Origin: Candidatus Hadarchaeota archaeon
GTDB lineage: Archaea > CAYQAE01 > CAYVLA01
Assembly (NCBI GenBank): GCA_964621445.1
Contig: CAZUNO010000002.1
Span: 32,001-96,000 of the forward strand
Length of the DNA stretch: 64,000 nucleotides
Direction: 5' to 3'
The translations under genes and the position numbers were made by a program. Each line of letters opens with the position of its first letter. Position 1 is the stretch's first letter. Shown piece after piece: positions 21,322 through 53,962 of the stretch. The notes beneath the pieces were generated by a model, which did not search any database, was not told the origin of the DNA, and was given only the letters and a program-made list of their open reading frames with translations.

Positions 21322-21460
21322 CGCTGGGGAGGGGATTTGAACCCCTGAAGCCTTTCGGCAACTGACTAGCTGCTCCGATCTGGATTAGCAGGCATACGCT
21401 GCTAAGCATCAGCGCCCTTCCAGATTGCCCGTGGATTTCTCCACACTAGGCGACCCCAGC
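21322..21460 (-). tRNA. tRNA-Ser(GCT) with three introns: 21425-21445 (position 15/16), 21394-21409 (29/30) and 21368-21385 (37/38); CCA not encoded
   Basis: The spliced 84-nt product is GCTGGGG TC GCCTAG^TCTGGAA GGGC G CTG^GC CTGCTA^A GTCAG TTGCCGAAAGGCTTC AGGGG TTCAAAT CCCCT CCCCAGC G. It has a 7-bp acceptor stem, a T-arm, a long variable arm and G73. Each intron folds into a BHB or BHL motif. Confidence 0.92.
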
Positions 21461-49631: not shown

Positions 49632-50897
49632 TTGCCTGGGATGGGCCGCAAGAAAATAATCATTCTAGGTATGGGTAGGATAGGGCTACCCACTGCTGCA
49701 TGTCTAGCCAACGCTGGTCACCAGGTACTTGGAGTCGATATAGATCAACGAAAGGTTGCCGATATCCGCGAGGGGAGGATAGATGGCAAGGAACCTGGAT
49801 TATCCGAAATGGTACTATCGGCCATGGAGTCGGGGACCCTCCGCATTTCAACGGAGCCGGTCCGGGGCGACGTATTCCTGCTTTGCCTGCCCACCCTGCT
49901 CAAGGAGGATAGGACATGTGATCTATCGGCCATTTCCTCCGCGATGGACTCCATATCAAATGTCATCTCGCCGGGCAATCTGATTATCCTGGAATCCACC
50001 GTGCCGGTACATACCACCCGGGATTTCCTGATACCTGGGCTGGAAAAGAGAGGAGTGGACACCTGTAAGGTGCTCTTCGCTTATGCCCCGGAGAGAATAA
50101 TGTCGGGAAGAATGCTGGAAGAGATAAGGAAGGATGACCGGATAATCGGTGTCACAAGTGAAAAGGCTGCAAAACTAGCCAGAGAGGTGTACGAGAGCTT
50201 CGTTGAGGGGGACATTTTCATTACCGATACCTCCACGGCCGAATTGGTGAAGCTCGCGGAAAACACCTACAGAGACATAAACATAGCTTACGCCAACGAG
50301 GTCGCCCTCTTCTGTCAGCGGGAAGGGATCGATGCCCGACGTGCAATAGAGCTGGCCAATAGGCATCCCCGGGTTGAGATACATCGCCCAGGACCCGGAG
50401 TTGGAGGCCACTGCATACCCGTGGTCCCTCATTTCCTGGCCCAGAATAATAGCTACGATATGATGATAAAAGCGGCGAGAAAAGTAAACGAATCCATGCC
50501 GAGATATATAGCCAACATGATAACCAGGACCATAAGCGGAGCGGAGCAACCAAAGGTCTCCCTTATGGGCATGGCCTATAAGTCCGGCTCAGGGGACACC
50601 GTAAACAGCCCGGGATTACAGATTCTGGAGCATCTCCAGGGTGAGAGGATGGAAATTCTCCTATGCGACCCACTTGTAAGAAACCAGGAAATGGACCTTG
50701 TGGAAATGGAGGAGGCCCTTTCATCGGACTGCATCGTCTTTCTAGTCGCCCATCAGCAATTCAAGGAAATTGATCCACCCAAACCCAAGAAGGCCATGGC
50801 GACCGTCATAGATACCGCAAACTGCATAGAGCCGCGGAAATGGATCCGGCAAGGCTGGAAAATTAAACGTTTCGCATCCAAGAATCCTAAGGCTTAA
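49632..50897 (+). CDS. Nucleotide-sugar dehydrogenase (UDP-HexNAc 6-dehydrogenase, WecC/WbpA-like)
   Basis: GMGRIGLP, ESTVP, APER, KLAENTYRDINIA.ANE, PGPGVGGHCIP. Confidence 0.9.
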   Translation: MPGMGRKKIIILGMGRIGLPTAACLANAGHQVLGVDIDQRKVADIREGRIDGKEPGLSEMVLSAMESGTLRISTEPVRGDVFLLCLPTLLKEDRTCDLSAISSAMDSISNVISPGNLIILESTVPVHTTRDFLIPGLEKRGVDTCKVLFAYAPERIMSGRMLEEIRKDDRIIGVTSEKAAKLAREVYESFVEGDIFITDTSTAELVKLAENTYRDINIAYANEVALFCQREGIDARRAIELANRHPRVEIHRPGPGVGGHCIPVVPHFLAQNNSYDMMIKAARKVNESMPRYIANMITRTISGAEQPKVSLMGMAYKSGSGDTVNSPGLQILEHLQGERMEILLCDPLVRNQEMDLVEMEEALSSDCIVFLVAHQQFKEIDPPKPKKAMATVIDTANCIEPRKWIRQGWKIKRFASKNPKA

Positions 50898-52008
50898 CCC
50901 GGGCAAAGCTCAGCATCAAGGTCAAATCCCTATCGACATCAACCTGAGCCACCACGAACTTCTTCTTTACGCTGGCCGCCAACCTGCCCGCTCGAACGAT
51001 CTCCGTTGGCGTGATGTTGGCATCCTTGGGGAACACGTGGATCATAAAGGGGGCGTGGTCGATGCCGGGGCCGTATTCATATACCGCAAAATCCACTCCG
51101 AATTTCATTCCGGATTTTACGATCATTCCCGAGTCCTTCAATCCCTTATAAACCTGGTATCTCTCTCTGAAGTTCTTCTCCCTTGAACCTCTATCCATTA
51201 GATCCTGAGGACTCAGCTCCCTTTCCCCCTCCTTCAACTCCACCCTTCCCTTCTCGGTCAGGTAAAGGGCCTCGATGAATGATAATGTGATGGGCCTTTC
51301 AAAGGTCATGGACTTGGGTTTCCTGAGGCCTATCGGCTTTCCGAAATATCCTTCCTTGTAAAGACTGAGAGCCCCCGTGTGATCCCAAACCACCATCATG
51401 GGCCCCACCAGATCCGCGGAGTCACTCCTATCGGACGGTTCCTCCTCCATAGAGTTGGCATCGAATCTCCTGATTTCGTAGTAGGAGACCTCTCCCTCCT
51501 CATCAACCAGGGCCAGGTAAACTCCCTTTTTGTACCTTGCGCTCAATGATAGCAGTTTCTGAAGCTCGTCGAGGGGTATTCTCTTCTTGCGGGAGAATGA
51601 GGCAACAATATGAGAACAGGGCCTGGAGGGTTTCTCGTAGAAGAAAAGGTAAGGCATGTCATGCATTCCGGCCCGGACCTTTCTACCTTTACTCCTCAGA
51701 TCTCTGTATACCAGATATTTTAGGAATAACATGGGGTCGGATTGCCGCCCTCCGTGGAGCAATTCCTGAAAACTTACCTCTTTTCCCTCCTCAAGGACCT
51801 CGATGATACCCCGGCTTTGAAGATTTAGGGCTGCCACCTTTGGAAGAAGCACCCCTCCTCTTTCGGAGAAACCATATCCCATTTCCCTAAGAGGTGCTCC
51901 GTCCTCCACGAAGACCCCATCTGCCTCCATATTGGCCACAAAAACCTCTTGCTCCTGGGAACCCTCTTCGCCGATCTCTTCATCTACGTCTTCGCGCAAT
52001 GGATACAC
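50887..52008 (-). CDS. endA: tRNA-splicing endonuclease, fused structural + catalytic units
   Basis: N-unit YLVYRDLRSKG...LALVDEEGEVSYY; C-unit KSGMKFGVDFAVY..GPGIDHAP, RAGRLAASVKK (Tyr/His/Lys triad); insert GYFGKPIGLRKPK. Confidence 0.93.
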   Translation of the reverse strand: MYPLREDVDEEIGEEGSQEQEVFVANMEADGVFVEDGAPLREMGYGFSERGGVLLPKVAALNLQSRGIIEVLEEGKEVSFQELLHGGRQSDPMLFLKYLVYRDLRSKGRKVRAGMHDMPYLFFYEKPSRPCSHIVASFSRKKRIPLDELQKLLSLSARYKKGVYLALVDEEGEVSYYEIRRFDANSMEEEPSDRSDSADLVGPMMVVWDHTGALSLYKEGYFGKPIGLRKPKSMTFERPITLSFIEALYLTEKGRVELKEGERELSPQDLMDRGSREKNFRERYQVYKGLKDSGMIVKSGMKFGVDFAVYEYGPGIDHAPFMIHVFPKDANITPTEIVRAGRLAASVKKKFVVAQVDVDRDLTLMLSFARVKP

Positions 52009-52171
52009 CCTGGTGTGAGGATGACTAAAACTCGAATTCCGGGCTAGAAGTCATGCTGAACAATGCCCAGACGTTTCATGGAGCCCAAATCGGGTATTAA
52101 ATCTTTTCAGCTGCCAGAATTTGGCATCGATTTGGAGAGATATTTCAACCGTATTCTTAAGGCGGTTCCAG

Positions 52172-53962
52172 ATGAGGATAGCCATAGTCGATCCCGAAAG
52201 ATGCAAGGGCGACAAGGATTGTCCATACCTCTGTCTCAAATTCTGCCCTGGCGTAAGAATGGGCGACGAGACCATAATTATCGATGAAGATACGAAAAAA
52301 CCAGTTATTAGTGAGAGTCTTTGCTCCGGGTGTGGCATCTGTGTAAATAAATGCCAGTTCGACGCCATAAACATCATAAACCTTCTTGAACCCCCGGAGG
52401 AGGGCGAGGTCCACCGCTATGGAAGGAACGCCTTCAGGTTATTCGGCCTCCCACTTCCAAGGGAGGGTAAGGTGGTCGGGGTAATCGGCCAGAACGGGAT
52501 CGGGAAGACAACCGCCATAAAGATTCTGTCAGGGGAGATGAAACCCAATCTTGGTGACTTTGATGGAGGCGAGAAGAACTGGGAAGATGTTTCTCGCTTC
52601 TTCAAAGGCTCCGAACTACAGAGCCATTTCGAATCCCTTTCCAAGGATGGTCTGAAACAGGCAATGAAACCCCAGTATGTGGGACAGATACCCAAGATTG
52701 CCCAAGGCACCGCAGGTGATCTGCTTGAGGATGCCGATGAGAGGGGAGTTTTCGATGAAATCGTGGAGGGACTGGATTTCGAGGAGGCACTGGAAAAGGA
52801 CGTGGCTAGTCTCAGTGGTGGTGAACTCCAGCGACTTGCCATAGGAGCCGTTCTCGGTAAGGCGGCCGACATATTCTTTTTTGATGAACCAACCTCCTAC
52901 CTCGATATCTATCAACGGCTGAATACGTCCAAGATGATCAGAGGTCTGGCCGAAGAGGGAAGATCGGTGCTGCTGATAGAGCATGATATGACCTCGCTGG
53001 ACTACATGAGTGATTACGTCCACCTTCTGGTAGGAGAGCCGGGCGCATATGGACTCGTCTCTGATATCAGGTCGGTGGGCGTGGGTATCAATACCTACCT
53101 GGATGGATTTCTTTCCCAGGAGAACCTGAGAATTCGTGAAAAGGCCATTAGATTCAAAATTCATTCCCCCATTGCCTTTCAAGAGGGGAAGCTGTTGACA
53201 TCATTTTCCGACCTTCAAAAGGACTTCGGCGATCAGTTCTCCCTGAAGGTACATGGGGCCGATATACACAAGAGCTCAGTGATAGGAGTTCTAGGTCCCA
53301 ATGCCATAGGCAAATCCACCTTCATAAAGATGCTCGCTGGTGAGGTTAAGCCCGACCAGGGTAAGGTCGACAGAACACTCAAAATAAGCTACAAACCACA
53401 GTACCTAACCGTGGAGAAGGAGGAAAGGGTCAGAGACCTACTTTGTCGGGTGGGGAAGGAAAGGTTTGATACCTCAATCTACAAGACCCGAATTCTTCGT
53501 CCCCTTGGAATAGATAGGATGCTGGACCTCATGCTCCCAAACCTCAGCGGGGGCGAGCTACAGAAGGTCGCTGTTACCGAGGCCTTGACCAGGGAGTCGG
53601 ACCTGATGGTACTGGACGAACCAACGGCTCATATCGATGTCGAGGACAGGCTTACCCTATCCAAGGTCATCCGAAACTTGGTGGAGCGTGAGGCCAGAGG
53701 GTGCATAGTTGTGGATCACGATACGCAGTTTCTTGATGTGGTCTCCGATAGTCTAATGATATTCGAGGGCATTCCTGGACTGAAAGGCACGGGCAAAGGG
53801 CCTTTTAACAAACGAGAAGGCATGAACAAGTTTCTGAAGGAGATGGAGATAACCTACAGAAGGGATTATCGCACCGGGAGACCCCGGATAAACAAGGAAG
53901 GAAGCAAGTTGGACAAGGAACAGAAACGAAAGGGCGAGTATTATTACCTACCAGGCGGCTAG
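52172..53962 (+). CDS. rli: Ribosome-recycling ATPase ABCE1/RLI
   Basis: MRIAIVD..RC...C...C..FCP and C.GCGICV.KC.F FeS domain, two ABC domains, ITYRRD..TGRPRINK.GS.LD.EQK..GEYYY. Confidence 0.96.
   Translation: MRIAIVDPERCKGDKDCPYLCLKFCPGVRMGDETIIIDEDTKKPVISESLCSGCGICVNKCQFDAINIINLLEPPEEGEVHRYGRNAFRLFGLPLPREGKVVGVIGQNGIGKTTAIKILSGEMKPNLGDFDGGEKNWEDVSRFFKGSELQSHFESLSKDGLKQAMKPQYVGQIPKIAQGTAGDLLEDADERGVFDEIVEGLDFEEALEKDVASLSGGELQRLAIGAVLGKAADIFFFDEPTSYLDIYQRLNTSKMIRGLAEEGRSVLLIEHDMTSLDYMSDYVHLLVGEPGAYGLVSDIRSVGVGINTYLDGFLSQENLRIREKAIRFKIHSPIAFQEGKLLTSFSDLQKDFGDQFSLKVHGADIHKSSVIGVLGPNAIGKSTFIKMLAGEVKPDQGKVDRTLKISYKPQYLTVEKEERVRDLLCRVGKERFDTSIYKTRILRPLGIDRMLDLMLPNLSGGELQKVAVTEALTRESDLMVLDEPTAHIDVEDRLTLSKVIRNLVEREARGCIVVDHDTQFLDVVSDSLMIFEGIPGLKGTGKGPFNKREGMNKFLKEMEITYRRDYRTGRPRINKEGSKLDKEQKRKGEYYYLPGG

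Follow-up and report, generated by a model that had tools for sequence, protein, structure and literature searches.

What kind of tRNA splicing endonuclease (EndA) does the endA gene at positions 50887..52008 (minus strand) of this 64,000-nucleotide stretch of Candidatus Hadarchaeota DNA (hereafter, the window) encode, and could its product explain how the intron at 15/16 of a tRNA-Ser gene in the same window is removed? By its domains, catalytic triad and fold, the 373-aa protein is a two-unit EndA. Its sequence, its predicted structure and the analogy with solved enzymes further indicate that it is likely to be a working homodimeric tRNA/RNA splicing endonuclease of the korarchaeal kind, in which a beta-like structural unit is followed by a catalytic alpha unit bearing the crenarchaeal-specific loop (CSL, the L1 loop of Kaneta et al. 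2018).

The gene is a single intact open reading frame (ORF) in the ORF listing of the window, with 373 codons and a stop at 50887-50889; its GTG start (52006-52008) is uncertain by a few codons, and residue-to-nucleotide coordinates were verified by translation. The Pfam models for the EndA N-terminal domain (PF02778, E 4.3e-20, cut-off 21) and the EndA catalytic domain (PF01974, E 5e-42, 142 bits against a cut-off of 27) each matched two stretches of the protein, and TIGR00324 matched it at 124 bits (cut-off 59.6). Among NCBIfam models, the two-unit alpha'2 model NF006795 covered residues 44-372 (E 5.1e-52) at a score far under the model cut-off, and residues 97-179 gave a weak match to beta-subunit models (E 5.9e-8). 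The resulting layout, all on the minus strand, comprises a structural, beta-like unit 1 with N and C sub-domains (residues 21-181; 51466..51948), the linker FDANSMEEEPSDRS (residues 182-195; 51424..51465), which shows no secondary structure in the AlphaFold2 model, and a catalytic alpha unit 2 of the loop-bearing (L1) type (residues 196-373; 50890..51423).

Aligning the family profiles of the two units with hhalign (96.4% probability) placed Tyr124, Pro130 and Lys161 of unit 1 opposite Tyr310 (51079-51081), His318 (51055-51057) and Lys349 (50962-50964), the catalytic triad of unit 2 (50962..51081). Unit 1 lacks the catalytic His because Pro130 occupies the His318 column, a state in keeping with that of most non-catalytic units in a set of split units, which retain the Tyr (or Phe) and the Lys and not the His. 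We also considered unit 1 as the catalytic unit on account of a conserved His, and ruled this out, as that His lies three columns past the catalytic column in the profile alignment. Among 146 two-unit proteins, Tyr310 and His318 never vary and Lys349 hardly does; the 327 catalytic units of the MAFFT alignment used below were selected for having the triad and carry no independent weight on it. By a count along the phmmer alignment, His318 falls opposite A. pernix His133, the residue that is Ala in 3ajv, which Table 1 of a review (PMC6379350) gives as the H133A entry. The Pfam matches and the triad columns bear out the original prediction of one chain with a non-catalytic and a catalytic unit.

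Unit 1 also carries an acidic loop, DEEGE (residues 169-173; 51490..51504), at the place of the L10 loop of solved EndAs, where this loop docks into a basic pocket of the partner (PMC6379350, PMC5829648). Asp169 of the loop is invariant both in the 146 two-unit proteins and in an 11-sequence alignment, and the acidic loop and Lys302 are conserved across the alignments of two-unit proteins.

To the catalytic unit the original prediction had assigned a crenarchaeal-type loop at ~51293-51351, and both the position and the identity of this insert hold. In phmmer searches against PDB sequences, residues 197-356 aligned with the A. pernix alpha subunit (3p1z_B, E 3.9e-43), and no gap interrupted the loop region GYFGKPIGLRKPKSMTFERP (residues 220-239; 51292..51351) in the alignments with this protein, with S. 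tokodaii 2cv8 (GYYGKPIGISKPKSAE) or with P. aerophilum 2zyz_B. The insert is 10 residues long and aligns gaplessly with CSL/L1, and Lys230 (codon 51319-51321) falls, again by count, opposite A. pernix Lys44, the named loop lysine of that enzyme (PMC6379350, Fig. 1 legend). In the MAFFT alignment of 327 catalytic units, the segment from Gly223 to Leu242 spans 18 residues in all 24 members of the fused family and 18-19 residues in 153 single loop-bearing alphas and four Korarchaeota-like fused proteins; its median length is 8 residues across 129 alpha'2 catalytic units and 17 single ones that lack the loop. Furthermore, column 230 is Lys in each of the 181 loop-bearing rows (24/24 family members, 153/153 single L1 alphas and 4/4 Korarchaeota-like proteins) and a gap in 127 of the 129 alpha'2 catalytic units. 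Judged from these alignments, the insert is the CSL and not a look-alike. Grafting the CSL into A. fulgidus EndA widened the specificity of that enzyme, and a Lys-to-Ala mutant lost this gain (PMC6379350).

To place each unit among its relatives, we inferred separate phylogenies. A word-indexed search with the whole protein gave 512 matches at E <= 0.001; among the best 120 of these, which were listed, about 19 clusters are 59-69% identical to the 373-aa protein (16 of 333-436 aa and three shorter pieces), and the next tier comprises ~210-aa single alphas with 38-50% identity over the catalytic half, followed by Thermoplasmatota-type alpha'2 proteins at ~30%. When the catalytic half was searched against shorter proteins, the nearest relatives of unit 2 among the best 120 of 778 matches were single alphas with 44-54% identity, those with names belonging to Baldr-, Thor-, Hod-, Ran- and Nezha-archaea, Methanomethylicota, Methanosuratincola and Thermoprotei. 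A quick tree of 67 catalytic units recovered the family (SH-aLRT 100) inside a clade of 27 loop-bearing rows (100), with 40 alpha4/alpha'2 rows falling apart from it, and the loop clade was found again, with support of 100/99, in a careful tree of 44 rows. Although these trees were computed with the loop columns included, such columns are unlikely to drive the placement, because a long branch (0.48-0.99) separates the loop clade from the other rows. On these phylogenies, the catalytic unit is placed within the loop-bearing alphas of TACK and Asgard archaea.

For unit 1, an exhaustive HMMER search returned 341 matches at E <= 0.001. Among the best 150, the first from outside the family is the N-half of an alpha'2 protein, P0129 (Archaeoglobi/Mnemosynella, E 5.9e-23), and ~170-185-aa single proteins are also matched, such as P0133 of Thermoprotei at 38% identity. 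The same search brought up the other two-unit loop-bearing proteins, namely P0161 (Korarchaeota), P0270 (Methanodesulfokora/Korarchaeota), P0165 and P0176. In a quick tree of 83 structural units the family grouped with the N-units of these Korarchaeota-like proteins (SH-aLRT 94), and a careful tree of 60 rows gave the same pair with support of 99/94 and left 19 alpha'2 N-halves outside the group that holds unit 1. For this second tree, 23 of the 83 rows were dropped after the quick tree as long, compositionally odd or single rows nested elsewhere, a choice that may flatter the result.

Taken together, the two sets of trees speak for a beta-alpha fusion, as originally suggested, derived from the (alpha-beta)2 lineage, rather than for a euryarchaeal alpha'2 enzyme that gained a loop. 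As to the fusion event, the unit 1 trees point to one probably shared with Korarchaeota, and the unit 2 trees do not discriminate between a shared and a separate one.

The position at which EndAs hold their substrate sets the family apart. According to the review, alpha4 and alpha'2 enzymes grip the substrate by two Arg residues, and (alpha-beta)2 and epsilon2 enzymes by an Arg and a Trp (PMC6379350). Instead of the Trp of the (alpha-beta)2 pair, unit 2 has Arg370 (50899..50901), in a column occupied by Trp in every other loop-bearing alpha unit compared. Within the 327-unit alignment, this column is Arg in 24/24 family members, Trp in 153/153 single L1 alphas and in 4/4 Korarchaeota-like fused proteins, and, among the 129 alpha'2 catalytic units, Arg in 121 and Trp in 8. 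The family, judged by these columns, joins the CSL with an alpha'2-type Arg/Arg clamp, a combination that, going by the review's statement on alpha'2, matches the laboratory chimera 3P1Y. The 3P1Y chimera is credited with the "broadest substrate specificity".

Structural prediction was consistent with the sequence-based assignments. An AlphaFold2 model built from 146 two-unit sequences had a mean predicted local distance difference test score (pLDDT) of 94.0 and a predicted template modelling score (pTM) of 0.88, with only residues 1-20 below 70 (61-68). In a Foldseek search against the PDB, the top whole-chain match was 5x89, an engineered beta-alpha fusion from M. kandleri (E 1.2e-29, template modelling score (TM) 0.86 on the target), followed by 3p1y_A, the A. 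fulgidus EndA with a grafted CSL (TM 0.87), and then by native A. fulgidus alpha'2. The catalytic half superposed on the A. pernix alpha subunit with a root-mean-square deviation of 1.8 A at 42% identity, and every one of the listed chains among 42 PDB matches at E <= 0.001 was an EndA/TSEN chain.

These results distinguish the window protein from the established EndA types. It is not an (alpha-beta)2 heterotetramer, as both units lie in one ORF; the A. pernix enzyme (3P1Z/3AJV) resembles it in its catalytic unit, CSL and triad, and differs in having separate alpha and beta genes and the Arg/Trp pair, where the window EndA is fused and Arg/Arg. Nor is it a euryarchaeal alpha'2 enzyme, such as those of A. 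fulgidus (1RLV/2GJW) and T. acidophilum (2OHC), with which it shares the two-unit chain, the homodimer design (predicted for the window protein) and Arg at column 370; those enzymes lack the loop, have narrow specificity (PMC6379350, Table 1), and belong to another catalytic clade. It is likewise not an epsilon2 enzyme, since it has two units and ARMAN-2 EndA (4fz2_A) matches residues 241-367 only (E 4e-19); epsilon2 EndAs (4FZ2/9W2K) are, as is predicted for the window protein, homodimers of broad specificity, and they too have a lysine on a loop at the equivalent structural position, but they consist of three units (alphaN-alpha-betaC) and carry an ARMAN-specific loop (ASL) unrelated in sequence to the loop of the window protein. 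The two engineered proteins that head the fold search, 25-27% identical to the window protein, resemble it in different respects: 3P1Y in being a two-unit chain with the CSL and, by the same reading of the review, the Arg/Arg pair, although its units are of alpha'2 descent, and 5X89 in its beta-then-alpha order, although it is without the loop.

The closest known counterpart is the EndA of Korarchaeum cryptofilum, and the hybrid architecture of the original prediction proved to have been proposed already. In 2011 a korarchaeal alpha2 EndA was described with a catalytic unit that branches within the (alpha-beta)2 enzymes and carries the loop of Crenarchaeota and Thaumarchaeota, and a subunit fusion giving "a new class of homodimer" was put forward (Fujishima 2011, PMC3239211). 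The korarchaeal form was then listed as a hypothetical type (Fujishima and Kanai 2014, PMC4033280) and later as an "irregular alpha'2" with L1 (Kaneta 2018, PMC5829648), in a study that also assigned the alpha4 type, with an L3 loop, to one Hadesarchaea genome. The korarchaeal enzyme is not known to have been characterised biochemically. The two enzymes are alike in having an N-terminal structural and a C-terminal catalytic unit, the L1 Lys and a catalytic unit that falls among (alpha-beta)2 alphas, and non-canonical and multiple introns likewise occur in the tRNAs of Korarchaeum. The window EndA differs in its Arg370, its acidic N-terminal extension, its host lineage (labelled Hadarchaeota/Thermococci) and the presence of an epsilon2 paralogue alongside. 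Among full texts, which take in few subscription journals, and with the proviso that supplementary figures S9 of PMC5829648 (an EndA tree) and S2 of PMC3239211 (a loop alignment) may show more, no fused loop-bearing EndA outside Korarchaeota was found, nor, in the same literature, any report of two EndA types in one genome. With the architecture itself known from Korarchaeota, what is new is the host lineage, an Arg at the otherwise invariant Trp of the substrate-holding position, and the occurrence of a complete ARMAN-type epsilon2 EndA beside the fused EndA in 4/4 genomes of the archaeal family.

To relate the enzyme to its likely substrates, we examined the tRNA genes of the window and of the genome. 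From a T-loop pattern and a reading of the sequence, a 139-nt gene for tRNA-Ser(GCU), interrupted by three introns and likely to yield a substrate of the enzyme, was located at 21322..21460 (minus strand). In the bulge-helix-bulge (BHB) ruler, a 4-bp helix is flanked by a 3-nt bulge on each strand and the cut falls after the second bulge base. Read in this way, the 21-nt intron at 15/16 (21425-21445) has a central helix of 4 bp (3 in one genome) and an inner helix of 5 bp, and forms none of three outer-helix pairs in any of four genomes; the 16-nt intron at 29/30 (21394-21409) has a central helix of 4 bp, an inner of 1-3 bp and an outer of 3-4 bp; and the 18-nt intron at 37/38 (21368-21385) has 4, 3 and 2-3 bp, respectively. 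By these motifs, the 15/16 intron is of the relaxed hBH/BHL kind, without an outer helix, in agreement with its original description as a BHL intron, and the other two are full BHB motifs.

The spliced product is called tRNA-Ser(GCU) by ARAGORN in all four genomes, and the locus is 88-90% identical in three sister genomes, with both flanks divergent. ARAGORN and Rfam found no other GCU-anticodon tRNA in the genome. Neither ARAGORN nor Rfam, the latter at the gathering threshold or at E <= 5, found a tRNA in the unspliced 64-kb window; ARAGORN missed the tRNA-Ser gene with or without its intron option, and the Rfam tRNA model missed the locus even when this was searched alone; three-intron tRNA genes escape both programs here, and automatic annotation would score tRNA-Ser(GCU) as missing. 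Placing the second intron at 31/32 (positions 54-69 of the gene) was rejected, because cuts there allow no BHB and positions 68-69 show exon-like conservation; the 29/30 parse (positions 52-67) gives full helices in 4/4 genomes, pair 46:65 changing from G:U to G:C in sister genome G003. Both parses yield tRNA-Ser(GCU) in ARAGORN. A 7-bp pairing of positions 36-42 with 77-83, present in the minimum-energy fold, was considered as the anticodon stem and rejected as an alternative pairing, since it leaves an impossible D arm.

Disrupted tRNA genes extend beyond the window. By our own reading of the ARAGORN and Rfam results, 26 of the 38 Rfam tRNA matches in the genome exceed the intron-less length of their class. 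Alignments were obtained for 16 of 20 loci, a biased sample composed of 19 loci chosen for length plus the tRNA-Ser locus, and 10 of these 16 contain inserts of 18-36 nt outside the anticodon loop, in the D loop, variable region or T loop, several of them with two. ARAGORN intron-option calls with introns of 246-2214 nt were judged false where Rfam gave no match. Several non-canonical introns have a common build, with a short hairpin and then GGG(R)AA(N) immediately ahead of the 3' cut, which is seen in the D-loop intron of tRNA-Ser (21425-21445) and in the variable-region inserts of tRNA-Met, tRNA-Lys(CUU), tRNA-Tyr and tRNA-Ile (L023, L033, L035 and L039); this shared sequence pattern suggests that one intron family may have spread to different tRNA positions. 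Separately, Rfam and ARAGORN assign the anticodon GAA (Phe) to two genes of 84-85 nt, G000:C15:2241-2324 (L025) and G000:C45:5941-6025 (L026). Both have G73, a Leu/Ser-like D arm and a variable region that contains a hairpin of 13-14 nt; a normal intron-bearing tRNA-Phe(GAA) lies at C19:16867-16957. The hairpin of L025 and L026 is either a variable-region intron or the mark of a long-arm (class II-like) tRNA for Phe codons.

The source genome (G000), in which the window lies on contig C2, is a bin of 3.2 Mb in 89 contigs, 96% complete and with 4.2% contamination. We compared five species genomes of the phylum, four from the archaeal family of the window and one from its sister family. The fused gene is present in 4/4 family genomes at 60-65% identity, one copy being cut at a contig end, and in the one genome of the sister family the only EndA is a 190-aa alpha that has the triad and no loop. 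Among the five genomes no unfused L1 alpha or beta was seen, and a search of the source genome with PF01974 and the beta models found no separate beta gene beyond its two endA genes; the one additional match, on contig C6, had an E of 0.2.

The second endA gene lies outside the window, at L012:835-2043 (plus strand), equivalent to ~28563-29771 of contig C9 of the same genome, and encodes a 402-aa protein of the epsilon2 (ARMAN-2) type, which fits the epsilon2 description that the window protein does not. It aligns with residues 13-387 of the 395 of ARMAN-2 EndA (4fz2_A, E 2.6e-74) and, by a count along the alignment, keeps the residues opposite ARMAN-2 Tyr236, His251 and Lys282 and ASL Lys161. 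The paralogue occurs in 4/4 family genomes, and its nearest relatives are 16 closely grouped clusters with 61-72% identity, followed at 37-45% by hundreds of ~390-aa proteins, assigned where named to Aenigmarchaeota or Micrarchaeota. We considered contig C9 as a contaminant of DPANN origin and rejected this, given its tetranucleotide fit to the genome (r 0.993), the separate 61-72% identity group and the presence of the paralogue in all four genomes. Contig C9 bears the only Rfam-supported tRNA-Tyr of the genome, as well as a tRNA-Ser(CGA). Three other contigs, C11, C10 and C22, deviate in tetranucleotide composition (r 0.861, 0.926 and 0.928; the other contigs longer than 40 kb lie at 0.96-0.997), C11 having a GC content of 0.575, and may be contamination or foreign islands; the tRNA genes of C11 and C10 are included in the tRNA counts given above.

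We propose that two chains of the fused EndA would pair, by analogy with solved enzymes, with the DEEGE loop of unit 1 in each chain docking into the basic pocket on unit 2 of its partner. The four-unit body so formed would hold two Tyr310/His318/Lys349 active sites and cut the two bulges of a bulge-helix-bulge, a motif that archaeal EndAs cleave to leave 2',3'-cyclic phosphate and 5'-OH ends. Unit 2 would supply the active site, a surface of Arg339, Arg342 and Arg370, and the L1 lysine, and Lys230 would add an RNA contact through which relaxed motifs at non-canonical positions could be cut. The proposed substrates are the D-loop intron of tRNA-Ser(GCU) and the D-loop, variable-region and T-loop inserts of the genome's other tRNA genes. 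Because of its distribution in the phylum and the TACK/Asgard affinity of both units, we infer that the gene was acquired by transfer, probably from a TACK-related donor and possibly already fused.

Several observations weigh against the reading of the protein as a korarchaeal-type fusion that cuts relaxed motifs. The family sits at the base of the L1 clade in the 44-row catalytic tree with weak support (80/61) and is not joined there to the Korarchaeota-like group (100/98); in the 60-row tree, the group that encloses unit 1 together with all 23 beta-like singles is supported by 89/69 only, and the sister pair of N-units consists of two long branches (stems of 1.12 and up to 1.67). Arg370, moreover, replaces a Trp that is otherwise universal in L1 enzymes, with a possible effect on specificity; the epsilon2 paralogue looks intact and, with its ASL lysine, could make relaxed cuts alone; and the genome is a metagenome bin with an estimated 4.2% contamination.

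A first alternative is an independent fusion, in which this lineage would have joined its own beta and alpha and the likeness of its N-unit to that of Korarchaeota would reflect convergence or long-branch attraction. We regard this as possible, though the less probable course, and it agrees with the full (100%) support for the family and for the Korarchaeota-like proteins as separate groups in the careful catalytic tree, with the 29-39% identity between the family and P0161, P0165, P0176 and P0270 in the 11-sequence alignment, in which the linkers show no similarity, and with the difference between Arg and Trp at column 370. It has to contend with the single, well-supported clade of N-units, with the fact that forcing the catalytic units of both groups together costs only 2.33 log-likelihood units in the 44-row set, so that a joint clade is not rejected (p-AU 0.325), and with the lack of any unfused L1 alpha or beta in the five phylum genomes; in a larger quick catalytic set, the joint-clade tree even scored above a short free search (p-AU 0.805). 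Much less probable is that a euryarchaeal alpha'2 enzyme acquired its CSL-like insert through convergence or a small recombination. That NF006795 is the best full-length NCBIfam model, that P0129 is the best match of unit 1 outside the family and that Arg370 is the alpha'2 state would all fit such an origin, but long TACK beta subunits such as P0133 match the same half of the alpha'2 model, which makes the NF006795 match non-discriminating, and the catalytic unit is closer, over its full length, to L1 alphas (44-54%) than to alpha'2 (~30%), falls in an L1 clade supported at 100% and is accompanied by a unit 1 whose group excludes the alpha'2 N-halves in the careful tree. Least credible of all is an artefact of mis-assembly, of mis-binning or of two adjacent genes read as one; a bin of this fragmentation and contamination could in principle produce one, but the frame is open in four genomes, about 19 clusters of close relatives come from several sources, the neighbouring genes are kept in sister genomes, contig C2 fits the genome in tetranucleotides (r 0.990) and the fold is confident through the flanks of the linker.

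The function of a korarchaeal-type fusion in this host bears on a further alternative, of division of labour or redundancy, under which the epsilon2 enzyme removes the relaxed introns and the fused EndA serves strict BHB introns, rRNA processing stems or as a back-up. The completeness of the paralogue, its retained triad and ASL Lys and its presence in all four genomes speak for it, as does the cleavage of relaxed motifs by ARMAN-2 EndA (PMC6379350, section 6); against it, the retention of both the loop and the catalytic residues of the fused EndA in 24/24 members argues for selection on loop function, and the sequence assigns substrates to neither enzyme. On balance we consider this alternative possible, though less likely than not. 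The original claim that the fused enzyme explains the removal of the 15/16 intron stands in part: it is a plausible candidate for this step, one of two, and is not the sole explanation, because the epsilon2 paralogue with its own loop is equally equipped.

Some further features of the locus deserve mention. Residues 1-20 (51948-52008) form an Asp/Glu-rich N-terminal extension that varies in length within the family and is absent from the Korarchaeota-like fused proteins, conservation in the family starting near residue 20 in the 11-sequence alignment. The endA gene is flanked by two genes on the plus strand, a 421-aa ORF (49632-50897), whose end overlaps the end of endA by 11 nt, and a 613-aa ORF (52121-53962). 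From their sequences, the former looks like a sugar-nucleotide dehydrogenase and the latter like an ABCE1/RLI-like ATPase with two 4Fe-4S motifs. The three-gene order is kept in sister genomes G002 and G003, with neighbours of 421-432 and 598-613 aa.

The field's central idea ties EndA architecture and specificity loops to the spread of non-canonical introns in tRNA genes, and the family described here bears on it in several ways. It provides a second, divergent set of fused loop-bearing EndAs, a form reported until now for Korarchaeota only, and a naturally occurring replacement of Trp by Arg in the substrate clamp. The sister family, with its plain alpha-type enzyme, offers a natural test of whether the loop, rather than the subunit arrangement, sets specificity, and the co-occurrence of the fused EndA with epsilon2 makes two loop types comparable on one heavily disrupted set of tRNAs. 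More speculatively, and as a tentative suggestion, the archaeal family may run two broad-specificity EndAs that are both needed, dividing D-loop, variable-region, T-loop and anticodon introns between them or even pairing together. If true, this would be the first natural two-EndA system, and would mean that stacked, acquired endonucleases can drive the spread of tRNA introns.

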